From positions 1 through 51,082 of the IMG/VR virus record IMGVR_UViG_3300045988_080243: a stretch of 51,082 nt of DNA. One strand, given 5' to 3'. The notes beneath the pieces are model-generated. The model did no database searches. It worked only from the letters and a program-made list of their open reading frames with translations, and was not told the origin of the DNA. Shown here in pieces: positions 24,164 to 47,453 of the stretch. This DNA comes from a virus. The translations under genes were made by a program, and so were the position numbers. Every line of letters begins with the position of its first letter. Positions within the stretch are counted from its first letter, which is position 1.

Positions 24164-25089
24164 GAGTAAACCTCCTCTAGCGTCACAGAAGCAGAAAAAT
24201 GACCACGATAGTTGTTAACAGTCAAAACCTTAGCAGTACCAGGAACGACCTTCAAATTGCCACCACCAGAAGGATACGAGTAAGTGTACTCAGTTGGTGA
24301 AGTATCAGGATACTTAGTCAGGCGAAGACTAGCCCAGCTAATATGCCCATCTTGAAAAGGCTTCATAGTAATTTCCCACACACCTTCACCAAAACTGAAA
24401 ACCTGATTCTTCAGCTTAGTAATCACATGCAAGGGCAAACCGCCACCATCAACACGATCAAAGCTCCACTTGAACGGGCGCTTGTTATCCTCAAAACCGT
24501 AAGCAAAAAACGTACCATACCACCCTTGTGGAATAACAACACGTTCCGTGTAACTGCCTGGCTTACTGAGCGCGAGCGACTGCTCACGCCCATTCAGCTT
24601 GTCACGCTCAGATATAAACTGGTTATTCATGTTCAGTATGTTCGGCTTAAGAATGACACCAGGGTGCCCAGTAGTAGAATCAACGTCCTTCGTAGGGAAC
24701 AGTGCTTGCTTACCCCAATCGTTGAACGCGAAGGGGGTCCCGGCATGGTAGTGCAAATAAGGCAAACCCATCAGAGGCGACAGCATGTTGTTAAACGCAA
24801 AAGGATCAGCATAGCTCACCCACTCGTCATTCCTGTTCATAAACAGACGACGGAACAAGTCAGCCTGTTCACGGTTAAGGAATGACCACGTAAGCTCGTA
24901 GTGCTTATGACCATAGACCGAGCCGTTCGTGTACGCGAATCCATTGAGCAGCGTTGTCGAACCGTCACCCGCGTGAATATTGTCCGACACGGGCGACTCA
25001 TCAGGCGCGGGGAACCAAGACATAAAGTTCCCCACAGCGAAGTACACCTCTCGCGTTTCACAACCCCTAGTAGACGCCACGGTTACCAC
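24157..25089 (-). CDS. Distal tail protein (Dit-like)
   Basis: Immediately downstream of the tape measure. Start is uncertain (GTG 25089, 25080 or 25047, or ATG 25023). Confidence 0.55.
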   Translation of the reverse strand: MVTVASTRGCETREVYFAVGNFMSWFPAPDESPVSDNIHAGDGSTTLLNGFAYTNGSVYGHKHYELTWSFLNREQADLFRRLFMNRNDEWVSYADPFAFNNMLSPLMGLPYLHYHAGTPFAFNDWGKQALFPTKDVDSTTGHPGVILKPNILNMNNQFISERDKLNGREQSLALSKPGSYTERVVIPQGWYGTFFAYGFEDNKRPFKWSFDRVDGGGLPLHVITKLKNQVFSFGEGVWEITMKPFQDGHISWASLRLTKYPDTSPTEYTYSYPSGGGNLKVVPGTAKVLTVNNYRGHFSASVTLEEVYSW

Positions 25090-28000
25090 TCCTCACATTA
25101 TTGCTGTCGATGTTCTTGCTAATAGCCCGACCATTCAACATGACTGTCGTCGAAACAGCCCGGACAAGCTCATTAAACTGCGCTGGATTAATTGTAACAA
25201 GCCCATCACCGACACCAGCAGAGTAACCACCACCAGACGCCACAGGCACCTGCATCGTGTTAAGCGCGTTCATGAAGCCCTTGCCGTAGAAATCGACAGC
25301 AGGCTGGGAAATGACGTACTCACCACTGCGCAACTTGAACAGGCCCTGCCCATTCGTAGCCAGCAGATTGTCGGTGGTCGGGTTAGCAGGTGGGCGTCCA
25401 GGCAGCAAACCACCACCTGCATAGCCGGGGATAAGGCCACCCATAAACCGACGACGAATCTGACCGGCCTGGCCAGCGTAACGCGCAGCATCCGCCGCCT
25501 GGCCACGGGTCAAACCCTTGGCCATAGCGTTTTGGATATACTGCGAATACGTCAACAACTGGTTCAGCTGGTTATAAGCCTGAGACGTATCAGCATTAAC
25601 AGGCACAGTCACCTGATTGCCATGGATGCTATCAATGCCAGTCTGTGTCGTACCAATGGTGCCCTGATCAGTCACGTTCTCCTTCACATCACGAGGAACC
25701 TGACCAATCGTCCCAGTCAAGCTATCAAAGGCACCAGCCAACTCAGTCACCTCACCCTGGTTAAAACCAAGCTGAGTCACTTGTTCAATAAACTGGCGCT
25801 TAAGGCTCTGAGTGTACGCCTCGATCTCCTGTGTCGAGTGACCGGCAGCCGCGTAAGCCTCGATCAACCCAACCATCTGAGACTGCAATGAACGCAGCGC
25901 CTCGCGGTTAGCGATAGCTGCTTCCGTGTACCCCTTCAACGCAAACTGGCCAGCCTGAAGAGTCGCAATCTCATTGTTGTTCTCACTGATCTTGCTCTGC
26001 CCCTCGTTGATCTTCTCCTTGGCATCATCAATGTCCACCTGCAAGGACTGAGCGCGCTCCTCGTCGCCGTACTTCAAGGCGACAGCACGGAAGAACTCAG
26101 CATCATGCAAATCCTGCTGAGCCTTACTCATGTCAGAAGCGAGCTTGTCGTTCTCCTTGCGGAGGTCCTTCACCTTCTTGGTCGTGTTCTCCACGTCCTT
26201 CTTCAGGCTGTTGAGACCCTTCCGGTAATTGTCCTGTGCCGTTGTCGAACGCCACCAGGAGGTCAGCGCCTTGTCGAGTGCAGACTTCAGCCTCGACAGG
26301 AAGTCCTCGAAGATTTCAGCAGCAGTCTTTGTTTCCTTGCGGGCATGAGACGACGGCGAATGACCGCCACCGCCAGAACGAGGCGAATGACCGCCACCGC
26401 CACCGCCACCGCCGGACGAGCGCTGAGGCTTGGCACGGAAGTTGTTGGCACTAAACGCCGACTTCCCATTGTTACGCAAAGCAAACGTAGGCGTACGTAT
26501 CTTCGACTTCTGGCCAAGAGTAAACGACCCCTTGCCAGACAGTGACTTCGCACCACCAATCTGCGACATGTAGCCCTGGATAGACTGCCAAATAGCCTGA
26601 ACCTTACCCAAGAACCCCTGAGCCTGACTCACCGCGTTAGCAGCATTACCCACCATCTCATTCAACGACGCGTCTGTCGCCGAATGATCCACCTCACCCG
26701 ACTGGTAAGGCTGAGCGATGATAGCGGCCATCGTGTCACGCTGAGCCTCGAACGCGCTCATGTCGAAGCCCTGGGCCGACAGGTAATCAATCGTGTCCTG
26801 GATCGACTGCTGAGCGTACTGGTACGCTTCCTCGCCAGTTAGACCCATCTCCTCGATACCAGCCGCAGCAGCATTACCCATGGCCTGGAAATAGTCCTCA
26901 ATAGCTGCAATGTTCGCCTGACCCTCAGCAGAGTTCGGGTCCATCGAAGTCCCGTTAGTCTGCATGGACTCATACACCTGCTGCAACGCACTATCAAGCG
27001 CAGCCGCAGCATCCGTCGATGAAAACATTTCATCAAGGACAGAACGAAGAACCTCACCCAGATCCTTGAACTCGTTCTTAGCGTCGCCGATCTTGAACGA
27101 CGCCTCCTCTGAGCTGTCGCCCGCCTCAGACATCTCCTGACCAAACAGCTGAGCATCATTCAAAGCGTCACGCATAGCGCCACCGACACCCTCAGTCTGG
27201 CTCTTTACCTCGTTCAAGGCACTGATCTGCCCCTCAAACTGTGAAGCAATGTCCGCACGCTTAGTCGCGTAGGAAGGAGATTCAGGATCGAGCTTAGCTA
27301 TCATCTCATTCTTGCGTGCCTCAAGCTGGGCAATGTACCCATCCACATAAGCGTCAGCAGCGGTCTTACCGCCGCCCTCAGCCTCCGACGTCGTTGCCAA
27401 CTTAATGTACTGCGCATAGCTGAAGCCCATGTCAACAAGCGCCTGCTTCACATCCTTCGACATGTTCTTGAAAGAATCAGAACCCTGAATAGCATCAGAA
27501 ATAAGCGCCTGCGTATGCTCACCGATCTTCAACGTCGAATAGCCGAACGCCTCAGCCTGAGCATGTGTCGTCTGAACAACCTGGCCGGACTTATCCACGT
27601 AGTAACCAAGTGCCTCACCATTCGACGTGAGAGTCTGGCCATTCTGCTGGATCGTAGCGTTCAACTCAGCGAAAGAAGTCTGAGCGCCAGAGCCAACCTC
27701 CTTCGTGTCTTCAGCCAAAGCCTTCAGAATAGCCGACGAACCACCGACAGCAGCCTTCAAGTTCTCAGCCTTCTCCGACGCGCCCATGAAAGAGTCACCA
27801 AGGTACGTCGCAGCGACAGACGCCGCCGTAATACCACCTGTAATAATCAGACCCCACGGCCCACCAAACATAGCCATCAAGCCAGAGCCAACAGCAGACA
27901 GCTTCGACAACGCGCCGACAGCCTGGCCAGCACCGGCAGCCACCTGAGCACCCGTCGAAACAGCCGACGCCGCAGCCTGAGCCTCCTTCGCAGCAGCCGC

Positions 28001-30268
28001 CTTACCAGCAGCCACAGCCACAGCCGAGTCCGACGCTGCAAGACGCTGATTCGCAGCAGCAGCAGCATTAGCAGTACCCACATTAGAAGCAAGCGACCCA
28101 TCATACGCAACGACACCAGCCTGAGCCTGCTTCACAGCCTGCCACACCACGCCCCATGACAACGTTTGCTGACCCGTCGCCTGCATAACACGAGTCTGCA
28201 TCTGAATGTACGTCGCAGACATTGACACTAGCGCGGCCTTCGTCGCCACCATAGCAGCGCGAGCAACACCCACAGCCGTCAAAGCACCAATGAACGCTTG
28301 AATAGGCGCGGGCAGCTTCGCGAAAGCATTCACAGCCAGTGTCGCCACAGTAACAATAGCCTTCATCGGCACCATGAAGCTAGAGTTCATAGCTGCGCCA
28401 GCATTCTGCAAAGCATTCTGGAACTGCTGCAACTTCGCCGACATGGTGTCGGTGATAATTGACATCGAATCATCAATGAATGATGTATTCTTCGACGCCC
28501 GCTCAGCTTCCTCCAACTGCTCCACATACAAGCCGACACTGTTCGACATACGCGACAGCAGCTCCACGTCACGCACATTCTTAAAGCCCAAGTCCTTAAT
28601 AGTCTGAGCCTTCTGAACCTTGTCGCCAATGCCCGCAAGGTTCTGCAAGATACCCTGGAACACCTTATTCGGGTCATCTCGCCAGAGCTTTTGGAACTCG
28701 CCATCCGTCACGCCGACAGCGCGCGCATACGTGTGCATAGCATCGCCGCCCTCAGCAGCAGCCACGTTGATCGAGTTGAAGATACGCTGAAGTGAGCCTC
28801 GTGCCCACTCCTTTGGAATAGCGAGCGACGACAACGTGGACGACAGGGCCAGAATCTGGTTCTGAGTAAAGCCAGCGCTCTTACCTTGCGCGGCAATACT
28901 CACCATCATGTTTGCAATCTCAGGCTCCGTCGCAACAGACTTCGCACCCAGATCAGCAACCTGATTCGCAAGAATCTTGTAGCCGTCCCCCGCGCCCTTG
29001 GAGGACTCCTGCAAGCCACCCATCATCTGGCCGAAGCGGCCAAACGCTGTCGTTGCAGCCTCGACATCCATCTCCGTCACTGTCGAGAACTCAGCGACAG
29101 CCGTCGTGAAGTCCTTCAGGTCCTTTGTTGGAATGTTCATCTGCGCGCCGAGTGTACCGATCTTCGCAAGGTCAGCAAATGGGGTCACAACCTTCTGCGT
29201 AGACAAATCCGTGTACGCCTTACGAAGCTCGGCCAAATCCTGTGTCGTGCCCTGTGCGGTACGCTTCACGTCGGCGAACGCACGCTCCTGTGCAATGCCA
29301 GCCTGCGTAGCAGCCGACACCAGCGTGCCAAGGCCAGCCGTAATCGTCCCGTAATACACCGCCGTGTCGCGAGCAGCATAACGAACATTCTCAATCGCCT
29401 GCTCATTCGCACGCAACTGCGCCTTCGCCTGAGACGCATTGATACGCATCATCTGGCGCTCGCCAGAACCCTGCTCCTTAATCATGGCACGCTGCGTACG
29501 ACCAGCTTCAGCCTCACGAGCAGCAGCAATGCGAGCGGACGCAGCGACAGCAGCGGCCTCACGCTTCGCCTCAGCGGTTGCTGTCGTACCGGCAAGCTTC
29601 AGCTCAGCCTGCTGCAACGCTGTCGTAGCCTGAATCTCGGCAAGACGAGCAGCCTCAGCGCCCTTTGTCTTCACCAAGTTACGCTCGTCCCGGCCCTTCT
29701 GTCGCTGCAAAGGGATAGCGTTATCCTCATGCTTCACACTCGCCTGAGCACGAAGCTTCTCAGCCTGCGCCTCAGTCTTACGGGCCTGCGACTGGTTCAA
29801 CGTCGCCTGGGCCTTCTTCGCCTTATTCTCGGCCTCGGCCATGGCATTCGACGCAGAAGCCACCTCACGCATAGCCGAAGCAGTATCCTTCAGCTTAGCG
29901 ATGTGATCCTTGCTCAGGTTGTTCATCGTGCGAGTCTCGCGGATGAACTGTCGATATGCCGAAACAGCCTTATCGACACCAGCCGAAAGATCAGCCTTGC
30001 TAACATCACCCGCAGCCTTATTCAGCGCACCAAGCGCATCGGCCACAGACCGCAGAGCCGTAGCAGATTCCTTCAGGTTCTTGACCCTCGAGCTATCAAG
30101 CTGCAAAGAATCAAGAACCGTACCACCACGGCCAGACGGGGACTTCAGTGTGGCGACAGCACTCTGTAGCGAGCCAATCTGCTTTTCCAAAGCACCAATG
30201 CTCTGCGCCGCCTTATCTACACCCGAGGCATTAACGTCAATGTCAATCTTGATCGACTCGTCTGCCAT
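25067..30268 (-). CDS. Tape measure protein (about 1733 aa)
   Basis: Largest ORF, Ala/Gln-rich and alpha-helical, with internal hydrophobic segments and Gly-rich stretches. It lies directly downstream of the chaperone pair. ATG at 30268 sits 5 nt after AGGAG. Confidence 0.9.
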   Translation of the reverse strand: MADESIKIDIDVNASGVDKAAQSIGALEKQIGSLQSAVATLKSPSGRGGTVLDSLQLDSSRVKNLKESATALRSVADALGALNKAAGDVSKADLSAGVDKAVSAYRQFIRETRTMNNLSKDHIAKLKDTASAMREVASASNAMAEAENKAKKAQATLNQSQARKTEAQAEKLRAQASVKHEDNAIPLQRQKGRDERNLVKTKGAEAARLAEIQATTALQQAELKLAGTTATAEAKREAAAVAASARIAAAREAEAGRTQRAMIKEQGSGERQMMRINASQAKAQLRANEQAIENVRYAARDTAVYYGTITAGLGTLVSAATQAGIAQERAFADVKRTAQGTTQDLAELRKAYTDLSTQKVVTPFADLAKIGTLGAQMNIPTKDLKDFTTAVAEFSTVTEMDVEAATTAFGRFGQMMGGLQESSKGAGDGYKILANQVADLGAKSVATEPEIANMMVSIAAQGKSAGFTQNQILALSSTLSSLAIPKEWARGSLQRIFNSINVAAAEGGDAMHTYARAVGVTDGEFQKLWRDDPNKVFQGILQNLAGIGDKVQKAQTIKDLGFKNVRDVELLSRMSNSVGLYVEQLEEAERASKNTSFIDDSMSIITDTMSAKLQQFQNALQNAGAAMNSSFMVPMKAIVTVATLAVNAFAKLPAPIQAFIGALTAVGVARAAMVATKAALVSMSATYIQMQTRVMQATGQQTLSWGVVWQAVKQAQAGVVAYDGSLASNVGTANAAAAANQRLAASDSAVAVAAGKAAAAKEAQAAASAVSTGAQVAAGAGQAVGALSKLSAVGSGLMAMFGGPWGLIITGGITAASVAATYLGDSFMGASEKAENLKAAVGGSSAILKALAEDTKEVGSGAQTSFAELNATIQQNGQTLTSNGEALGYYVDKSGQVVQTTHAQAEAFGYSTLKIGEHTQALISDAIQGSDSFKNMSKDVKQALVDMGFSYAQYIKLATTSEAEGGGKTAADAYVDGYIAQLEARKNEMIAKLDPESPSYATKRADIASQFEGQISALNEVKSQTEGVGGAMRDALNDAQLFGQEMSEAGDSSEEASFKIGDAKNEFKDLGEVLRSVLDEMFSSTDAAAALDSALQQVYESMQTNGTSMDPNSAEGQANIAAIEDYFQAMGNAAAAGIEEMGLTGEEAYQYAQQSIQDTIDYLSAQGFDMSAFEAQRDTMAAIIAQPYQSGEVDHSATDASLNEMVGNAANAVSQAQGFLGKVQAIWQSIQGYMSQIGGAKSLSGKGSFTLGQKSKIRTPTFALRNNGKSAFSANNFRAKPQRSSGGGGGGGGHSPRSGGGGHSPSSHARKETKTAAEIFEDFLSRLKSALDKALTSWWRSTTAQDNYRKGLNSLKKDVENTTKKVKDLRKENDKLASDMSKAQQDLHDAEFFRAVALKYGDEERAQSLQVDIDDAKEKINEGQSKISENNNEIATLQAGQFALKGYTEAAIANREALRSLQSQMVGLIEAYAAAGHSTQEIEAYTQSLKRQFIEQVTQLGFNQGEVTELAGAFDSLTGTIGQVPRDVKENVTDQGTIGTTQTGIDSIHGNQVTVPVNADTSQAYNQLNQLLTYSQYIQNAMAKGLTRGQAADAARYAGQAGQIRRRFMGGLIPGYAGGGLLPGRPPANPTTDNLLATNGQGLFKLRSGEYVISQPAVDFYGKGFMNALNTMQVPVASGGGYSAGVGDGLVTINPAQFNELVRAVSTTVMLNGRAISKNIDSNNVRSGNRGVY

Positions 30269-30322
30269 TCTTACTCCTAAGAAAAGTCCCTGATACCACC
30301 TCAATGATACCAGGGACTCTTC

Positions 30323-37835: not shown

Positions 37836-40400
37836 TCACGCTAGAAATACCGACAACTCTTCCTCGAACATGAAGTCCAAGAGGTCATCCTCTTCGAGCA
37901 GGTCATCCGGCGAGTAATACTGGCCTTCTGCATCACCAGCCATAATTGCCCCAATATTCTGGTATGCATAAATGACAGCATCAAGAACGTCAGGCGACTT
38001 AATGCCACGCTTACGCATATTTTCCTTCGATTCGATAAGCATTGCCGACCCGCGATACTCGTACTTAATCGAAGCGATTTCGTTGTGAAGTTCATCGTCA
38101 TCCGGCAGGAAGACTCGACCATCAGCGACAGCTTTAGCGAACTGATCGTACATAGCAGCGCGGTAGTTGTACCACTTCGTGCTATCCCCAGACTTTGCGT
38201 TGCCGTGGATACCAACGACAGACATGCTAGGCGGCACGTAATTGTAGATACTATCGAGAACAGATGCACCGACACCAATCGCGTCAATACGAATCTCGAC
38301 AGCCCCCAGCTCCGTGGCCAGCTCACCAACCTTGCGCGCAAGCTCAGGACCATTCAAACCTTGGTAGCGGCCATGAATCCTGATGTAGCCACCCTGGTTC
38401 GACACGATCACAGAGCTGTCGGAACCATAACGTGCCACATCGACGCCCAGAGTGATCGGCATGCCCTCATCCGGCTCGGAGGTGTCGTAGGCTTCCATGG
38501 ACTGCATGACGCGCCCCATGTTGAACAAGCCATCGTCAGACACGTCAGGGAACTCGCCAAGGACACGTGCGACAAAGCGGGGGTCATCCTCACCCCATTC
38601 CTTCTTACGCGCCTCAACCCAGTCAACCTGCACAAGACGAGTCGCAACCTCAACAGGCACGACTTCGCCCGTGAAGTTAGGGGTGTCGTATGCTCCGAAC
38701 TGGATGATGTTCCACGAGCGTTCCTCTGGCTTCAGGCGCATCTCCCGCTTATACACCTCAGCCATGTAGCATGAGGGGTCATTGGGATTAGCAATGGCCA
38801 GAATGCGCGCGTACTTGTTGGTGGTGATTGCGTCGGCTGCGGTGAAGATTTCCTTGGAGATGCCACCCGCCTCGTCCATGATGACGAGGACGTACTGGTC
38901 GTGGACACCCTGAAAGCCGGACTCGTCCTTATCGTCCGGCTTCATACCGAAAGCAATAGGGTCCTGTCGGTCATCCATCTTCCACGTTGCATCGGCGTTC
39001 ACCTTGCCTCGGATACCTGCTACAGCCTTGACACGGGGAATCTCTTTCCACAGGACGTTACGTACCTGTTTCCAGTTCGTAGCCGTGGTGACAACTGTCG
39101 TGTCATCGACAGGGTGTGTGTCTACCCACCAGTTGACAAGGGTAGCTGAAAGTCGGCTGTTATGTGTCGGCACCATGTGCTCACCCACCAGGTACATGTG
39201 GCTCTCAGAGTCCACCTCGATACACTGGGTTGGCTCAGTCGGCACCGGCACGACATCGACAATGGTACGCACTGTCTTGCACGAAGACTGAGCGTCCTGT
39301 TCTGGGCGCTCAAGGCTCTTCACAGAACCGGGCGTGAACGGGTCGAACGTAGGGTTAAACACTATACGCCAGCGGGGCCCTGCATCTTCGCCATTCAGGT
39401 ACGTGCGCTCCTTAGAGACATTGCAGCGTACACCAAGGGAACGAACCAGCTCGACAACCCCGAGTGCCAACTGCTCGTTCATGAAGTCAATGCCGACACA
39501 CGTGCTTGTCTTTGTCCCGGCGTTGAAGCCATCAGTGTCCATGAGGCCACGCAGGAGGTCAATCCGCTGCTTGATAGATGCACGCAGGTACACCTGTGGT
39601 ATGTGCTTGTTGTTCAGCACACCAAGATCGCGCAGTTTAGCCTTGTAACCTTGATGAGTAAAAGCAAGACATTCAGCCGTATCCGAGTGATAAGAATACT
39701 GGTGAAGCTCAACACCTTTTTCAGCAAAAATATCTTTGATATGCTGCTTTCGATCACCAATCGTAATGCATGGGTTAGCTGAGTGACCATCACCAAGCCA
39801 TACACCAAGCACGTATGGGTCAATCAGCAGATCAACTTCTTGTCCGACAATGGGCGCGTTAATCGGAACGTAGTGATTAGCCTGATTCTGCTTGCCATGT
39901 CGCAGAGACGACATGATCTCCCGTGTCTCTCGGGTACGACCATAAGACCAACCATTACGCCAATCACCATCAATACGCTTACGCGCTCGCCTAGCCTCGT
40001 TAAAGTCTAGCGTCACCCATTCATGATTAGGCGAACAGATAAACTCCGCACCATCATTGAAGATGACCTTCACGAGGTCATGGTTCCAAATCTGCGACTT
40101 ACCAGTTACCTTAGTTGGGTGCCCATACTCGTCAAGAACATAGTCACCGACCTTAACCTCGCCGATAGTGGCCCATCCAGTAGGAGTAGGCAATTTTTCG
40201 GTTAACCGAAAATCCTTACCCGCCCCGTTCCCAGTAACCACAAGGGTTTTCTGATATTGAACAACAGACTGTGAAACTTCACGCTGCTTAGACCACATGA
40301 ACAAACCGTGGTCCTCAGCCCACTTAGCAGGGTTGTTGCGCCACACTTCAAGACGCTGAGCATCTGAGAATTTCTTGGCGACAGCACCAAAGGGCAGCAT
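37836..40400 (-). CDS. terL: Terminase large subunit interrupted by an intein
   Basis: Walker A TGNGAGK|...|S is split by a 352-aa insert. Walker B-like VIMDEAG and a C-terminal nuclease region follow. The mature protein would be about 502 aa. Confidence 0.9.
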   Translation of the reverse strand: MLPFGAVAKKFSDAQRLEVWRNNPAKWAEDHGLFMWSKQREVSQSVVQYQKTLVVTGNGAGKDFRLTEKLPTPTGWATIGEVKVGDYVLDEYGHPTKVTGKSQIWNHDLVKVIFNDGAEFICSPNHEWVTLDFNEARRARKRIDGDWRNGWSYGRTRETREIMSSLRHGKQNQANHYVPINAPIVGQEVDLLIDPYVLGVWLGDGHSANPCITIGDRKQHIKDIFAEKGVELHQYSYHSDTAECLAFTHQGYKAKLRDLGVLNNKHIPQVYLRASIKQRIDLLRGLMDTDGFNAGTKTSTCVGIDFMNEQLALGVVELVRSLGVRCNVSKERTYLNGEDAGPRWRIVFNPTFDPFTPGSVKSLERPEQDAQSSCKTVRTIVDVVPVPTEPTQCIEVDSESHMYLVGEHMVPTHNSRLSATLVNWWVDTHPVDDTTVVTTATNWKQVRNVLWKEIPRVKAVAGIRGKVNADATWKMDDRQDPIAFGMKPDDKDESGFQGVHDQYVLVIMDEAGGISKEIFTAADAITTNKYARILAIANPNDPSCYMAEVYKREMRLKPEERSWNIIQFGAYDTPNFTGEVVPVEVATRLVQVDWVEARKKEWGEDDPRFVARVLGEFPDVSDDGLFNMGRVMQSMEAYDTSEPDEGMPITLGVDVARYGSDSSVIVSNQGGYIRIHGRYQGLNGPELARKVGELATELGAVEIRIDAIGVGASVLDSIYNYVPPSMSVVGIHGNAKSGDSTKWYNYRAAMYDQFAKAVADGRVFLPDDDELHNEIASIKYEYRGSAMLIESKENMRKRGIKSPDVLDAVIYAYQNIGAIMAGDAEGQYYSPDDLLEEDDLLDFMFEEELSVFLA
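39159..40214 (-). mobile_element. Intein (class-3-type WCT signature) with a LAGLIDADG homing endonuclease domain
   Basis: There is no Cys/Ser at residue 1 (DFRLTEKLPTPTGW). Block B is SPNHEW, block F is QCIEVDSESHMYLVG, and block G is VPTHN followed by +1 Ser. LAGLIDADG motifs are LGVWLGDGH and LLRGLMDTDG. Confidence 0.8.
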
Positions 40401-42152: not shown

Positions 42153-43178
42153 TTACTTAGATTCTACCAGCTTCACGATTCCATTACTGTCTTGTTCAAC
42201 GACGATGCGGCCATGGAGCAACTTACCGTCCTCGCCGAAGATCGAGCAAGCACCATCGAGGCGAGTCTGGCACAGTCCGACAGCCATAGCGCCGGTGTCT
42301 GTGAAGAAGTAGTCATCACCCTTGTACGACAGCCAGCCGGTACGCATAGCGCCGTTTTCCTCAAGGTAGTACCACTTGCCCTTCACTAACTGCCAGCCGG
42401 TTTGCATCTGTCCCTTGTCGTTCAACAGGAACCAATGCTCACCGTCCTTGATCCAGCCGGTCTCCATCTCACCATAACGTGTGTCGTGGACATTATGCAG
42501 GAAGTACCAGAAACCATCAATGTGCTGCCAGCCGACCTGCAACCAACCCTTCTCGTTGGCGTAGTACCACTTGTCATTAACGGGAAACCAGCCGGTCTCC
42601 CACGAGCCATCCTCAAGGCGGTACCACCAACCACCGTCCTGCGACACCCAGCCTTCCTTGTTGGACAGATCAGCATCAAGATTGTCGTAGTACGCCTGCG
42701 CCTTCTCGATGTACTCGCCCGAGTACTTATCACGCAAGGAAGCCGGGCAGGCAGTCGAGTAGAAGTCCGAATGGGGGAACACATTGGAGCGCCACTCAGG
42801 GCGACCAAGGCCATACGCACGACAGATAGCAGCGGTCAGATGGGCACCCGCGTCGATGGTCTCATCCCCGACATCCCATCCACCCTCAGCACCAGAGCAG
42901 TTTGCGTGCTCGATGCCAATCGACTTCTTGTTCACACCAGGGCAGTGCCAGGCTGTGTCGGAATCATGTACGAATTGGCAGATGTTGCCGTCGATGTCAA
43001 CGTTGTAATGGGCTGAAGTCCCATTATTAGTAAAGGCCCCATACACACCAGCATGTGCCATAGCCTTACCCGCATTGTGGTGGATGACAACACGATCAAG
43101 GGCGAAACCACCACGCCCCTCATCGAAGTTGCCAATCCAGATGTTGTGATCGGCAATCAGATCAGTCCAACTAATCAT
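42153..43178 (-). CDS. Endolysin: N-acetylmuramoyl-L-alanine amidase (amidase_2/PGRP) with C-terminal cell-wall-binding repeats
   Basis: Amidase motifs VVIHHNAG, AWH, SIGIEH and HSDF..TACP. About six GW..(D/K)G.W(Y/F)Y aromatic repeats of choline-binding (CW_binding_1) type. Confidence 0.9.
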   Translation of the reverse strand: MISWTDLIADHNIWIGNFDEGRGGFALDRVVIHHNAGKAMAHAGVYGAFTNNGTSAHYNVDIDGNICQFVHDSDTAWHCPGVNKKSIGIEHANCSGAEGGWDVGDETIDAGAHLTAAICRAYGLGRPEWRSNVFPHSDFYSTACPASLRDKYSGEYIEKAQAYYDNLDADLSNKEGWVSQDGGWWYRLEDGSWETGWFPVNDKWYYANEKGWLQVGWQHIDGFWYFLHNVHDTRYGEMETGWIKDGEHWFLLNDKGQMQTGWQLVKGKWYYLEENGAMRTGWLSYKGDDYFFTDTGAMAVGLCQTRLDGACSIFGEDGKLLHGRIVVEQDSNGIVKLVESK

Positions 43179-43456
43179 CGCTTAATCTCCCAAGGACCCA
43201 TGTACGACTGCTCAGCATTGATGACTTCAGTAAGGGCTTGAATACCCTCGTCTGTCACAAACACTTGCCTATGATAACTCTTCCGCTTCCCGCCGTTGGT
43301 AACAACGGGACGCACTCCGAGAAGGCCTTTAGCCTTCTCAGTGGGCATTTTAAACCCATAACCGCGCTTTAGGTACCCAGCACGACACAAGCACCGGATG
43401 ACCTTGATCGGGCCGATATCGAAAGTTCGCGCGAACTCCAACAGACTTGGTTCCAT
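43175..43456 (-). CDS. KilAC-like DNA-binding protein (93 aa)
   Basis: The pattern LLEFARTFDIGPIKVIRCL..AGYL......P.....G......VTDEG resembles antirepressor C-terminal (KilAC) domains. Confidence 0.4.
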   Translation of the reverse strand: MEPSLLEFARTFDIGPIKVIRCLCRAGYLKRGYGFKMPTEKAKGLLGVRPVVTNGGKRKSYHRQVFVTDEGIQALTEVINAEQSYMGPWEIKR

Positions 43457-43881
43457 CACGCACCGTCCACTTCAGTGAAGAAGTCAGCAAACGGGTTATC
43501 CCCAGGCTCCGAAAACTCCATGCCAATAGGCGCTTCCTCAGCATCGACAGGCCGTAGAACATCTTTCGGCTGCCGAACAGACTTGAAGATCAGCGTCCAG
43601 TCAATAGGCATGTAGTCCCCCAACAAGATCATGTCCTTTATGGTCAACGATCCATTAACCAGCTTATTGTAGTAATAGCGTGAAGAATCAGCGCCAAGCA
43701 GTTTTCCGTCATCTGCTGCTGACAGGCCCGCGTCAGTGAACTGATGTACCACAAGCTGTCGAACAGTGCCTACACGCTGCTTAACGCTATCCGGATGCTT
43801 CATTGAGGCACGAGCGGCACGAGCCTTAGCCATACGGGCGCGCGCTTCTTCGAGCTTAATAGGGTCTGTAACCTTAGTCAT
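43456..43881 (-). CDS. Hypothetical protein (141 aa), possible HTH
   Basis: ATG ORF overlapping the nrdH end by 8 nt. Confidence 0.55.
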   Translation of the reverse strand: MTKVTDPIKLEEARARMAKARAARASMKHPDSVKQRVGTVRQLVVHQFTDAGLSAADDGKLLGADSSRYYYNKLVNGSLTIKDMILLGDYMPIDWTLIFKSVRQPKDVLRPVDAEEAPIGMEFSEPGDNPFADFFTEVDGA

Positions 43882-44529: not shown

Positions 44530-44563
44530 TGGTTCTCCTTTGTGTTATTTATCGAGGCAAGAT

Positions 44564-44595
44564 AGAGGGCCAGCACTAACCAGCACTGGCCCTCT
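44564..44595 (-). terminator. Hairpin terminator downstream of the surface-protein gene
   Basis: AGAGGGCCAG/CTGGCCCTCT 10-bp stem, 9 nt after the stop at 44605. Confidence 0.6.
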
Positions 44596-44604
44596 ACTTA
44601 TGTG

Positions 44605-45846
44605 TCAGCGAGTCGTACCGTATCGGCCAACGAACCAGGCCACGGCCACAGTAGCTGCACCGAACAGCAGCGACAGAATACCGATCACAGCGGCCTCAGA
44701 GGCAGCACCAGTCTTGGCCAGCTTGGCCTTCGGGGCCTCAATCGTTGGCGCGGGCTTAGGCGTAGCCTTAGTCGGTGCAGGCGTAGCCTTAGTCGGCGCG
44801 GGGACAGGCTCGATCTTGCAGGGCACACGGTCCTTATCTCGGTCAGGGTGGATCGTGCAAGGTGTCTGGGTCGGCGTGGGCGTCGGCTCATCCGAAGGCG
44901 CAGGAGTCGGCTTAGAAGGCTCAGGGGCCGGTGCAGGAGTCGGGGTCGGCTTCACAGTCCCATCGCCGTCGGTGCCTCCATTAGCCTTAATCGTTGCAGT
45001 CGCTTCCAGCTTGAGGCCATTCACCTCAGCGTGGTTGGTAACCGAGGTCTGCCCTTCTGGGACCTTCATCTGCTCTGGTGGGTAAGTGATGCAGACCTTA
45101 GACCCTTCAGGAGCTGCGAACTTGACCGTGTTACTGTCGATTCGAGTAGCGTCAATAACCTTAGTCGTAGCGGGGTCCCATGTATCAGCCGTCGCACATC
45201 GCACGGACGTGCCGAGAGTGGTGTCGAAGTCCTTAACGGTGTACTCGACACCGGCGTTAGCAACCCACTTAATCGCCCAGCCGACAGTACCGTTGTCGTT
45301 CCCCCAGCCGAACTTCAGATTCTCAGGTCGAGCGTACTCATAGTGCGCGACAGAAGCACAGTCATTTGTGCAGACGCCGGTGCCTTCAGCATCGCCCCAG
45401 ATGAGCTTCTTGACGACCTCACCATTGAGTGTGATTGTACCCTCGTTAGTGCCAACAGCGGCGTCCTGAAGCCTGGCTCTCGCCCACCACGTACCACTGA
45501 CATTGGTCTTGTCCTTATAAGACTCAGGCACCTCAGTGACCTTGCAGGTCAGCGTCGCTTGATCGGCGCTGCACTCACCAACGACAGTGCCGTCATTGAG
45601 AGCGAATGGGAAACTAGCGTTCCACTTGAAGCCTCCGTCCTTGCTGGTGACCGTGAACGCCTGGCCGACAGCCAGTCGCTCGGTGGTCCAGGTCCCGGCC
45701 ACATTGACCTCGCTAGAGGTCTGTCGAGACGCGGACGTTGCCTTGGTGACCTCGGCCTTGATCTCAGGGGTGGTGTCGGCAGCGTAGGCCGCTGCCGGGG
45801 CAGTCATCAGTAGTGCGACACCGGCTGCCGCAAGAAACTTCTTCAT
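44605..45846 (-). CDS. Secreted, sortase-anchored (LAKTG) cell-surface protein with a Pro/Thr-rich stalk; adhesin-like
   Basis: ATG at 45846 with SD gaaagga. Signal peptide is MKKFLAAAGVALLMTAPAAAYA. An Ig-like beta-rich region is followed by PTPTPAPAPEP and APTKATP repeats. The C-terminus is LAKTG, a hydrophobic helix, and RYGTTR. Confidence 0.8.
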   Translation of the reverse strand: MKKFLAAAGVALLMTAPAAAYAADTTPEIKAEVTKATSASRQTSSEVNVAGTWTTERLAVGQAFTVTSKDGGFKWNASFPFALNDGTVVGECSADQATLTCKVTEVPESYKDKTNVSGTWWARARLQDAAVGTNEGTITLNGEVVKKLIWGDAEGTGVCTNDCASVAHYEYARPENLKFGWGNDNGTVGWAIKWVANAGVEYTVKDFDTTLGTSVRCATADTWDPATTKVIDATRIDSNTVKFAAPEGSKVCITYPPEQMKVPEGQTSVTNHAEVNGLKLEATATIKANGGTDGDGTVKPTPTPAPAPEPSKPTPAPSDEPTPTPTQTPCTIHPDRDKDRVPCKIEPVPAPTKATPAPTKATPKPAPTIEAPKAKLAKTGAASEAAVIGILSLLFGAATVAVAWFVGRYGTTR

Positions 45847-45940
45847 TGTGTTAATGGTCCTTTCGTAGTTATCCGGGCTGACAACATTTAGTGTATCTGA
45901 CAGACTGAACAACTTACAAGGTATAACAGCGTGACTCTAC

Positions 45941-46963
45941 TCACAGCATGATGAATACTAGGGCCACTTCTTCGCGCACCCAGTCATTCGGCCTAGGTGC
46001 AGGTGCAGGTGTCGGTTCAGGAGTGGGAGTCGGCGGCACCACGACAGGGGGCTGTGGTGTTGGGGGCACTACAACTGGCGGCTCAGGTTGGGGCTGTGGT
46101 GCAATGTATGCGTACTTACTAGCAAGGTCAACACCATCAGAGAGAACATCTACTGTCCCCGGCTCATCAAGGCTAATAACACGCACATAGTCAACAAGCA
46201 TAGAGGAGGGATATTGTTCCTTAAACTTCGTCGCATCAACGTACTTGTCGTGCCCTTCTTCTGTGCCACCAGAATCCAGGAATTGGCCTCCAATAATATA
46301 AGACAAACGAATGATCCAACCATTCTCAGGATTAGTAAAAGGTGTCGGATCGTCCATATCAGAGTACCTAACTGTGTGGAGGATCCGACCATCACAATAG
46401 AAGTGAATAAGCTCATTGAGCTTAACAACGCTATAAGTGTGGAAGAAATCTTTAATATTGATTTTCCCTGCGGAACCAGACTTCTTAAAAGTTTTCGCAA
46501 ACTGCTGGCTCTTAGTGCCAGTAGCGTCACCGGCGCGCGGAGTGTGAGTGTTCATCTGGTAATCGTCGGACTGCCAGCCTTTAGCTTCAATGACATCAAT
46601 CTCGCCACAAGCAGGCCAGTCACCTTTAGTGCCAGTCATCCAGATACCAGGCCAGGATGAGAAAGCATAGGGCATCTGCGCACGCACGGACAGAATAAAC
46701 TGTCCCTTAGCCTGGAAAAGAACCTCGCCCTTATCTGGCTTGCGCGTACTCACCATACCCGACAAGAATGGTGCCTTCTCAGCATCAGTGCCCTCGGCAA
46801 CAGTCCCTGTCAGTTTAAGGTTCCCTCTCGCAACAGAGATATTTTTGTCCGAAAAACGCATCTGAGTGCCCTTATTGGGATCGAACTTACCCCAGGTGGG
46901 TGACCACATAGATGTATTAAGTGAGTCCCCAGTGAAATCATCGAAGAAAATCTGCTTAGCCAT
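45941..46963 (-). CDS. Glycoside hydrolase family 16-like (beta-glucanase fold) with a Pro-rich C-terminal tail
   Basis: Catalytic signature GEIDVIE (E-x-D-x-x-E) and WPGIWMTG. There is no signal peptide and no SD. The C-terminus is PPVVVPPTPQPPVVVPPTPTPEPTPAPAP. Confidence 0.75.
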   Translation of the reverse strand: MAKQIFFDDFTGDSLNTSMWSPTWGKFDPNKGTQMRFSDKNISVARGNLKLTGTVAEGTDAEKAPFLSGMVSTRKPDKGEVLFQAKGQFILSVRAQMPYAFSSWPGIWMTGTKGDWPACGEIDVIEAKGWQSDDYQMNTHTPRAGDATGTKSQQFAKTFKKSGSAGKINIKDFFHTYSVVKLNELIHFYCDGRILHTVRYSDMDDPTPFTNPENGWIIRLSYIIGGQFLDSGGTEEGHDKYVDATKFKEQYPSSMLVDYVRVISLDEPGTVDVLSDGVDLASKYAYIAPQPQPEPPVVVPPTPQPPVVVPPTPTPEPTPAPAPRPNDWVREEVALVFIML

Positions 46964-46976
46964 AGGTGTATAGTAT

Positions 46977-47011
46977 CATCCCCCTACCGATGGTTAGTCG
47001 ATAGGGGGATG
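46977..47011 (-). terminator. Hairpin CATCCCCCTA/TAGGGGGATG upstream of the GH16 gene
   Basis: 10-bp perfect stem with a 15-nt loop; followed on the minus strand by TACTAT-N6-ATG. Confidence 0.5.
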
Positions 47012-47103
47012 AGTCCTCACGTATTTTGAACCCACGTGCAAGGCCGGTACCCGAAAGGACGAACCCTTCAGTTACCTATTCCTGAGATCAGAGGCGCGCT
47101 GTC

Positions 47104-47367: not shown

Positions 47368-47453
47368 TGGTCCCCTTGGTGAGAGTCGAACTCACACTCC
47401 TTACTGGAACCCGGGTTTGAGCCGAGTGCGTCTGCCTGTTCCGCCACAAGGGG
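47368..47453 (-). tRNA. tRNA-Leu: tRNA-Leu (anticodon CAA), 86 nt with encoded CCA
   Basis: Perfect 7-bp acceptor stem CCCCTTG/CAAGGGG and the D region GTGGCGGAACAGGCAGACGC typical of tRNA-Leu. The anticodon stem is CTCGG/CCGGG with loop CTCAAAC. It has a long variable arm and T-arm GTGAG-TTCGACT-CTCAC. Confidence 0.9.

Follow-up and report, generated by a model that had tools for sequence, protein, structure and literature searches.

The virus genome held as IMG/VR record IMGVR_UViG_3300045988_080243 (positions 1 to 51,082; the whole of this 51,082-nucleotide stretch is hereafter referred to as the window) carries two adjacent genes with hairpins on either side, which a sequence-only reading had described as an insulated cassette of a glycoside hydrolase and a wall-anchored, adhesin-like protein. 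Gene 1 (45941..46963) encodes a GH16_3-like endo-β-glycanase of 340 amino acids (glycoside hydrolase family 16, GH16), identified by Pfam, PDB, AlphaFold 2 (AF2) and Foldseek comparisons. Gene 2 (44605..45846) encodes a sortase-substrate surface protein of 413 amino acids, recognised by reading of its sequence, AF2 modelling and Foldseek. A near-invariant palindrome (46976..47012) forms the upstream edge of the region and a terminator-type hairpin (44563..44596) its downstream edge; between them lie a −10-like hexamer (46970..46975) ahead of gene 1 and a leader (45847..45940) ahead of gene 2. Both genes and all of these elements are on the minus strand.

The gene 2 product is laid out as a signal peptide (residues 1–22), a region resembling the N2N3 domains of MSCRAMMs (microbial surface components recognizing adhesive matrix molecules; approximately residues 23–296), a stalk rich in proline and threonine (PT-rich stalk) and a cell-wall sorting signal. 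By inspection, the signal peptide, MKKFLAAAGVALLMTAPAAAYA followed by AD, has an n-region with KK, a hydrophobic core and a cleavage site between AYA and A; it is also conserved among homologues. The sorting signal opens with an LAKTG sortase motif (44707..44721) and continues with 27 hydrophobic residues and RYGTTR. LAxTG is the form preferred by class E sortases, and LAKTG itself is found in 118 of 120 close homologues of gene 2. Every full-length member of the family has a signal peptide, a domain of about 270 amino acids, a PT-rich stalk, and L[AP]xTG with a hydrophobic segment and basic residues.

An AF2 model of residues 23–300 had a mean predicted local distance difference test score (pLDDT) of 81, the inter-domain loop being of low confidence. 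The top 26 PDB matches returned for it by Foldseek were all two-domain ligand-binding regions of adhesins, nearly all of them bacterial MSCRAMM A-regions; SdrE, ClfB, Cna, FnBPA, SdrG, Bbp and UafA matched over the full length with E-values from 7e-9 to 1e-5 and a probability of 1.0. The signal peptide, MSCRAMM-like region, PT stalk and LAKTG/helix/RYGTTR end named in the sequence-only reading were thus confirmed by sequence, AF2 and Foldseek. Gene 2 matched no Pfam family at E-values up to 0.1, which places it outside SdrG_C_C, Collagen_bind and the like, and it matched no PHROG. Its own sequence family, which has six invariant cysteines and a GDxxGxGxCxxDC loop, is small, with 31 representatives among 1.84 billion proteins; more than 100 close homologues of gene 2 are on contigs of about 50 kb. 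Taken together, these results give good support to gene 2 being a predicted MSCRAMM-like sortase substrate by its architecture and modelled fold, not by sequence family.

Two other proteins are of note here. The sole good structural match to gene 2 in BFVD was A0A8S5U8F9, a 393-amino-acid protein named "Clumping factor" from an uncultured siphovirus (E-value 1e-12, 18% identity), which is another phage-borne MSCRAMM-like protein. The homologue P0248 has a signal peptide and an anchor nearly equal to those of the gene 2 homologue of phage Xhp1 (L001 5908–7146; see below), and its A-domain is 38% identical to that of Xhp1 and 36% identical to that of the window. The comparison of P0248 with Xhp1 suggests a cassette-like exchange of the ligand-binding domain, the ends for export and anchoring staying fixed.

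Gene 1 matched the Pfam family Glyco_hydro_16 (PF00722) with an E-value of 1.3e-8 and 35 bits (cut-off 22), and 39 GH16 chains among the PDB sequences at E < 0.05; laminarinases and mucin O-glycanases were among the PDB matches. Its AF2 model (mean pLDDT 83.5, predicted TM-score 0.81) has the β-jelly-roll fold of the family: the best Foldseek match was 4crq (E-value 2e-19, target-normalised TM-score 0.84), and 4crq, 6jh5 and 2vy0 all matched at E-values of about 1e-19 with target-normalised TM-scores of 0.75–0.86. The nearest structures by AF2 and Foldseek are GH16_3 laminarinases, β-1,3(4)-glucanases and gut mucin O-glycanases. The catalytic motif G120-E121-I-D123-V-I-E126 (ExDxxE; 46586..46606) stands opposite GEIDIME of laminarinase 2vy0, and GEIDxxE is kept in 54 of 58 phage GH16 homologues. 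The GH16 identity given to gene 1 at the outset was accordingly borne out by PF00722, the PDB alignment and Foldseek; the catalytic glutamates, whose loss on proper alignment had been raised as an objection, are in place, with E121, D123 and E126 aligning with 2vy0.

At its N-terminus, gene 1 cannot be extended, because an in-frame stop precedes the open reading frame (ORF), which opens at the earliest start codon possible beyond it. It lacks a signal peptide, its N-terminal sequence, MAKQIFFDDF, falling in the alignment where mature GH16 domains begin. Towards the C-terminus, the PPVVVPPTP repeat was confirmed as a proline-rich linker, so that both features claimed for the two ends of this protein hold on the sequence. 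The linker is followed by a conserved 15-residue tail, NDWVREEVALVFIML (45944..45988), with the consensus (N/G)DWVREExxLVFIML among phage GH16 proteins. A recognisable variant of this tail is present in 57 of the 58 phage homologues and lacking in all 62 listed cellular homologues. In the AF2 model the tail is not packed on the domain, with pLDDT values below 50 for residues 315–340, and it may be a docking or targeting peptide.

The closest cellular GH16 relatives, one of them named as Rothia, are 36–41% identical to gene 1 and 448–595 amino acids long. A signal peptide, a long proline-rich linker and a sorting signal (LPSTG, LANTG or LAKTG) are common to all 62 cellular homologues listed. 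The 58 phage copies have neither signal peptide nor sorting signal; they keep a short proline-rich linker and have the tail added. A PHROG search with gene 1 gave no match. Gene 1 reads as a putative descendant of the actinobacterial GH16 enzymes that sortase anchors to the wall.

Adjacency of the two genes was examined in 80 IMG/VR loci with gene 2, 35 of which are of the window's backbone. Of these 35 same-backbone loci, 15 have GH16 just ahead of the adhesin gene and 20 have none. L010 likewise has no GH16, with unrelated small ORFs upstream of the palindrome. Loci without GH16 have the palindrome and a TAYTAT box about 100 nt upstream of the adhesin gene, and retain the adhesin gene and the terminator. 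At their junction TACTAT-ATGTG runs directly into TGAGTAGAGTCAC, that is, the first bases of the GH16 ORF are joined to its stop codon; the junction is a clean deletion scar. Because GH16 is missing from 20 of 35 loci that retain the rest, the constant unit consists of the palindrome, the promoter-like box, the adhesin gene and the terminator, in which GH16 is a dispensable passenger.

Clustering of the gene 2 loci by their flanking DNA gave four phage backbones and one chromosomal context, that of Saccharibacteria (TM7). The adhesin gene occurs without GH16 in the three further phage backbones and in the Saccharibacteria chromosomes, and within IMG/VR GH16 was found in the window's backbone only. 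Of the two-gene GH16 and adhesin cassette proposed by the sequence-only reading, the adjacency within one unit stands, in 15 of 35 loci; an obligate pairing does not, given the 20 sister loci, the three other backbones and the Saccharibacteria. Gene 2 has a GC content of 59.7%, against 52.2% for the genome. Two marks of a moron, atypical composition and presence or absence among relatives, were found, in this GC difference, in GH16 being present in 15 of 35 loci, and in the spread over four backbones. In all four phage backbones gene 2 lies among early or middle lytic genes. Nine loci (L068, L069, L072–L074, L076, L079–L081) form a sub-type of this phage group in which the endolysin gene immediately precedes the adhesin gene, and the latter has a canonical terminator with a T-run behind it; by its position in these loci, the adhesin gene has moved within the backbone.

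The upstream palindrome, TCATCCCCCTATCGA-N7-TCGGTAGGGGGATGA, has 15-nt arms (46976–46990 and 46998–47012) that are 93% complementary. Its folding energy is −29.6 kcal/mol (z −6.05), and none of 200 shuffles folded as well. It occurs as a single copy in the window and is near-identical in relatives whose GH16 proteins are just 57–70% identical, one loop base varying. The core of its 3′ arm together with the TAYTAT box has exact matches in 34 loci (e.g. L010 5805–5823). The palindrome and the box are better conserved than the adjoining coding sequence. Compensatory changes were not observed, so it is the sequence itself that is under constraint. The palindrome might act as an operator, might terminate transcription of the upstream tRNA and early genes, or might do both; the pattern of conservation suggests that an operator fits at least as well as an RNA terminator, and specifically a protein-binding operator overlapping the promoter of the unit.

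The hexamer TACTAT (46970..46975) precedes the ATG of GH16 by 6 nt and is read as a putative promoter from which a leaderless transcript would start. A generic sigma-70 scan did not call this box, and we infer its promoter role from sequence context: in the GH16-bearing loci checked, the distance from TAYTAT to the ATG of MAKQ is constant at 6 nt, the spacer sequence is variable, and there is no ribosome-binding site. The fixed spacing with a variable spacer supports the proposal that gene 1 is leaderless and has no Shine-Dalgarno sequence, which is probably so. For some relatives, in which the start is called as "MCMAKQ", it further suggests an annotation that is two codons too long.

Downstream of GH16, the adhesin leader (45847..45940) contains a GTAGAGTCAC box, a hairpin and a ribosome-binding site (GAAAGGA at 45858–45864). 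The GTAGAGTCAC box directly follows the GH16 stop codon and is invariant across a leader alignment of 25 loci. The hairpin immediately precedes the ribosome-binding site, and of its 14 predicted pairs 3 are changed on both sides across the same 25 loci; the window's own version is degenerate and folds no better than shuffles (z 0.43). These alignments give a weak indication that a structured leader RNA may precede the adhesin gene.

The terminator-type hairpin at the downstream edge has perfect 11-nt arms (44563–44573 and 44586–44596) extending to a 15-bp stem, with a folding energy of −29.4 kcal/mol (z −5.59 against shuffles). Its stem is kept in relatives by compensatory changes (GGGCC, GCGCC or GTGCC with their complements), and it therefore behaves as a true terminator. 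A simple terminator scan found no excess over shuffles for the region as a whole, and the downstream hairpin was the sole one that it listed. Neither hairpin of the window has a classical U-tract. The hairpins that had been read as insulating the two edges of the unit were both confirmed, being stable against shuffles and conserved in relatives.

Homologues of gene 2 annotated as hypothetical are present in Schaalia phage Xhp1 (XHP1_00038, with RLAKTG) and in the salivary Caudovirus D_HF4_2 (with KLAKTG). Their A-domains are 61% and 69% identical, respectively, to that of the window's gene 2, and neither has an adjoining GH16. Saccharibacteria are obligate epibionts of oral actinobacteria, and Xhp1 is a prophage of Schaalia odontolytica XH001, the host of TM7x. 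A 2026 study reported that Xhp1 binds XH001 and TM7x, and weakly infects TM7x, via unidentified receptors; it does not mention the gene 2 homologue of Xhp1 (PMC13578794).

In a scan of one genome per prokaryotic species with four query sequences, the gene 2 family appeared in phage contigs binned in metagenome-assembled genomes (MAGs), in an Xhp1-like prophage and in Candidatus Saccharibacteria, including three cultured Nanosynbacter strains, at 44–49% identity. The Xhp1-like prophage (L011, NZ_JVKM01000061.1), 80–93% identical in nucleotide sequence to Xhp1, is in a record labelled Xylanimonas cellulosilytica 352_XCEL; the GC content of the contig, 64.6%, is below that expected for Xylanimonas, and the assembly may be a mislabelled Schaalia or Actinomyces.

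The homologues on chromosomes of Nanosynbacter and other Saccharibacteria (L004–L006 10001–11362; L007 10001–11302; also L012–L018) are found, on contigs of 150–400 kb, within the secE-nusG-rplKA-rplJL cluster, where they separate rplA from rplJ. The GC content of the gene is 60% (65–71% at third codon positions) and that of its flanks 44%, with sharp boundaries, and such an island points to transfer from a high-GC donor. Its composition marks the TM7 gene as a cross-phylum transfer from actinobacteria or their phages. The six cysteines and the sorting signal are kept across many TM7 contigs, for which reason these copies appear functional. Two further ideas were considered and rejected. A shift of the sorting motif from LAxTG in phages to LPxTG in TM7 does not hold, since the TM7 copies mostly have LAVTG, with LPVTG in just 32 of 119. 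Co-transfer of a WhiB gene adjoining one TM7 copy was also discarded, its GC content of 41.7% being native to TM7 and no phage match being found. A literature search for Saccharibacteria in connection with sortase substrates or MSCRAMMs found none.

The window phage is an oral actinophage of about 51 kb, apparently virulent. Around the unit lie a tRNA-Leu, a dUTPase, an NrdH-like glutaredoxin and an Amidase_2 endolysin with choline-binding repeats, followed by the structural genes; a Pfam scan placed the replication genes on the strand opposite to the structural genes. The endolysin is likewise without a signal peptide, and in the relative L003 an annotated holin adjoins it. The 30 flanking ORFs scanned gave no Pfam match to an integrase or recombinase, in agreement with the claim that the phage has no detectable integrase; the scan took in all plausible ORFs of at least 250 amino acids, leaving out small ORFs and a 1745-amino-acid ORF (25067–30304) that is taken to be the tape-measure protein.

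Megablast of the region against 50,697 cultured-phage records found nothing. With respect to the host, tblastn with the portal and endolysin gave matches to Actinobacteria in general only, at 49% identity or less. A search of the literature for Rothia phages gave nothing useful. The host is an actinobacterium of the mouth, possibly Rothia. A TM7 host for the window phage is disfavoured, because the phage tRNAs read codons that are rare in high-GC hosts.

In our view the region is, rather more probably than otherwise, a moron-type accessory unit that serves wall display of an adhesin and carries a dispensable glycanase freed at lysis. The unit would run from the palindrome through the −10 box, an optional GH16, a structured leader and the adhesin gene to the terminator. 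The steps of export and anchoring are all deduced from the domain architecture of gene 2. Its product would be exported via the Sec pathway by its signal peptide, fold oxidatively through the six invariant cysteines, and be cut at LAKTG by a host LAxTG-recognising (class E-type) sortase, which would link it covalently to peptidoglycan. The PT-rich stalk would then put the two-domain ligand-binding region beyond the wall, and the infected cell would thereby alter what its surface binds. The most likely benefit would be either masking of the cell surface or debris against further phage adsorption or the retention of infected cells in aggregates or biofilm beside new hosts. Of the roles put forward in the sequence-only reading, receptor masking, aggregation and release from wall glycan may each apply. 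Since gene 2 has an early or middle position in four backbones and no lysogeny genes were found here, its product should matter in lytic growth.

For GH16, the steps would be loss of the signal peptide and sorting signal and gain of the 15-residue tail, so that the enzyme would stay cytoplasmic and, like a canonical endolysin, meet glycans of the wall or matrix only once the holin fires. GH16 is thus probably an accessory glycanase freed at lysis, acting on a β-1,3/1,4-linked glycan. In this case a phage would have turned a wall-anchored host enzyme into a cytoplasmic one that is freed at lysis with a new terminal peptide.

Several observations weigh against the accessory unit as we describe it. 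The likeness of gene 2 to MSCRAMMs is in fold only, at 11–15% identity and TM-scores of about 0.45–0.54. Four of the 58 phage GH16 copies are mutated in the catalytic motif, two with GGIDILE, one with GKISVLE and one with GEIDVLK (the variants are P0054, P0056 and two more homologues), which could reflect decay of the gene or, in certain lineages, a role in binding without catalysis. The upstream element has neither a U-tract nor covariation, and may be a protein-binding operator, not an insulating terminator. The gene of Xhp1-like and D_HF4_2-like phages lies inside an early operon, with neither the palindrome nor a terminator to itself, so that a self-contained unit is a feature of the window's backbone alone. 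Finally, related contigs sit in MAG bins of Rothia, Actinomyces and Atopobium, so that the signals for the host genus conflict.

A different account places the adhesin in the system formed by oral actinobacteria, their phages and Saccharibacteria, in which it would be a shared currency: TM7 would have obtained the gene from its host's phages for attachment, and the phage and TM7 copies would share a ligand or bind each other. The 43–49% identical homologues in the Nanosynbacter core chromosome, present as a high-GC island and conserved on many contigs with cysteines and sorting signal intact, speak for such a role, as do the homologue carried by Xhp1, the prophage of the TM7x host XH001, and the binding of Xhp1 to both TM7x and XH001 (PMC13578794). 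This support is comparative, however, and a common gene proves transfer, not common function; TM7x itself is not among the genome matches of the one-per-species scan, and the host of the window phage has no known link to TM7. We consider both the shared role and the acquisition by TM7 for attachment unlikely on these comparisons, but not negligible. If they are correct, infection or lysogeny would alter TM7 attachment, or phage binding to TM7 would be affected, and phage copies displayed on infected or induced cells would attach either to that wall ligand or to the protein of TM7 itself, controlling epibiont attachment, Xhp1–TM7x adsorption or both.

It is somewhat harder still to believe that the two genes make up one functional module, in which GH16 is freed at lysis and its tail is captured non-covalently in the ligand trench of the adhesin. 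The two genes are adjacent in one unit, with GH16 always directly upstream where it is present, and phage GH16 keeps its linker while the sorting signal is replaced by a conserved tail rich in residues that favour β-strands, which AF2 leaves off the catalytic domain. Strand complementation is the way in which C-terminal peptides are bound by MSCRAMMs such as ClfA and FnBPA, which would serve as a precedent by analogy. Capture of this kind would amount to a two-part rebuild of the wall-anchored GH16 that bacteria make as a single protein. Against it, however, the adhesin occurs without GH16 in more than half of the sister phages (20 of 35), in the three other backbones and in TM7; identity in the A-domain falls to 57% with the tail almost invariant, which gives no sign of co-variation; and GH16 would be outside only after cell death.

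A quite improbable alternative is that GH16 is a virion-associated depolymerase, whose tail plugs into the particle and which digests capsule or wall polysaccharide at adsorption. Glycan depolymerases are carried by many phages, a parallel that, together with the lack of a signal peptide and the flexible proline-rich spacer before a conserved terminal peptide, would suit this role. Such enzymes are usually attached to the particle by N-terminal adaptors, however. In addition, the gene lies about 3 kb upstream of the lysis genes and away from the tail genes, has no PHROG match to tail proteins, and is missing in 57% of sister phages with otherwise similar structural genes. Chance adjacency of two unrelated hitch-hiking genes without functions of their own, for which the dispensability of GH16 and the few copies with mutated catalytic residues might be cited, can scarcely be credited, as both ORFs are intact in dozens of diverged genomes, the adhesin homologues keep the signal peptide, six cysteines and LAKTG (118 of 120), the regulatory elements are conserved, and the catalytic motif is present in 54 of 58 GH16 copies.

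What is new under the accessory-unit interpretation is that oral actinophages, apparently virulent ones among them, widely carry as mobile cargo an MSCRAMM-like adhesin with LAxTG, one that is often paired with an anchor-less GH16 and is common to Saccharibacteria. The comparison of loci shows a gene that moves horizontally among at least four phage lineages and has entered Saccharibacteria chromosomes. The presence of such cargo in apparently virulent phages implies that re-surfacing of the cell pays in lytic growth, not in lysogeny alone. XHP1_00038 and the TM7 homologue are also concrete candidates for the open question of the Xhp1–TM7x receptor, in a system that is culturable and at least partly genetically tractable; Xhp1 is the only phage known to have been demonstrated by experiment to bind both partners.

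Other features of the window lie outside the unit. Its sole tRNA is a tRNA-Leu (CAA) at 47368–47453, and sister phages (L003, L008, L010, L019) have three to five tRNAs at the equivalent site (Leu-CAA, Pro-UGG, Gln-UUG, Leu-AAG, Tyr). An Rfam scan of the region matched the tRNA and no other RNA family. An 854-amino-acid ORF (37836–40400, minus strand) occupies the place expected for the large terminase and contains a homing-endonuclease domain (PF05204, residues 267–334); it probably holds an intein, and L003 has a 502-amino-acid protein at the matching position. ORF 49946–50347 matches Phage_VG64, a mycobacteriophage family (E-value 1e-51), ORF 12976–13404 matches a dCMP deaminase, and ORF 43175–43459 has a weak KilAC/ANT-like match; these matches support an actinophage with nucleotide-metabolism genes of its own. 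L003 itself is an ENA scaffold with the same phage; at 112,605 bp it is about 2.2 times as long as the genome. As all of the fetched flanks consist of phage genes, it is probably a concatemer assembly, the less likely alternative being an integrated copy.

As for known systems, the statement that this gene pairing is undescribed was half right: we found no paper on the adhesin family, but phage-borne sortase substrates as such are known, from a few temperate phages of Firmicutes, SasX being an example. SasX is exported and anchored by the host sortase, and alters bacterial adhesion and aggregation. SasX/SesI is an LPXTG surface protein of phiSPbeta-like prophages in Staphylococcus aureus and S. 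epidermidis (PMC7047976). Like SasX, gene 2 is a phage-borne accessory gene with predicted anchoring by the host sortase. Whereas SasX comes from a temperate phage of Firmicutes, has LPXTG and is not a two-domain MSCRAMM, gene 2 is in a phage without an integrase, has LAKTG and is N2N3-like; it further differs in lying in the early or middle lytic region and being common to Saccharibacteria, and no sequence similarity between the two was found. With the MSCRAMMs (ClfA/ClfB, SdrG/SdrE, FnBPA, Cna), gene 2 shares the signal peptide, two tandem IgG-like (DEv-IgG) subdomains, a repetitive stalk and the sortase signal, but its stalk is of the PT type and has no SD repeats, its motif is LAxTG, and it is 11–15% identical and falls in no Pfam family.

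The copies in Xhp1 (XHP1_00038) and D_HF4_2 share the architecture of gene 2 but, unlike the window, have no GH16, palindrome or terminator of their own; Xhp1 is also temperate, whereas no lysogeny genes were found in the window phage. The wall-anchored GH16 proteins of oral actinobacteria and the GH16_3 enzymes have the domain, the ExDxxE motif and the proline-rich linker of gene 1, which in contrast to the cellular anchored proteins has no signal peptide or sorting signal, has a new tail and is at most 41% identical to them.

Morons, such as bor and lom of lambda and the HK97-type morons of Hendrix and colleagues, are classically expressed from prophages. The present unit resembles them in its putative promoter and terminator, its atypical GC content, its variable presence and its different positions across backbones, and departs from the classical examples in that the window phage shows no lysogeny genes. 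Functional counterparts are also known for each of the two proteins: mycobacteriophage LysB is a second lysis enzyme that acts on a non-peptidoglycan wall layer, and T5 Llp and TP-J34 Ltp are early surface blockers of receptors. The parallels of gene 1 with LysB and of gene 2 with Llp and Ltp would be ones of functional analogy, no homology having been found, and none of these three proteins is sortase-anchored, unlike the predicted product of gene 2.

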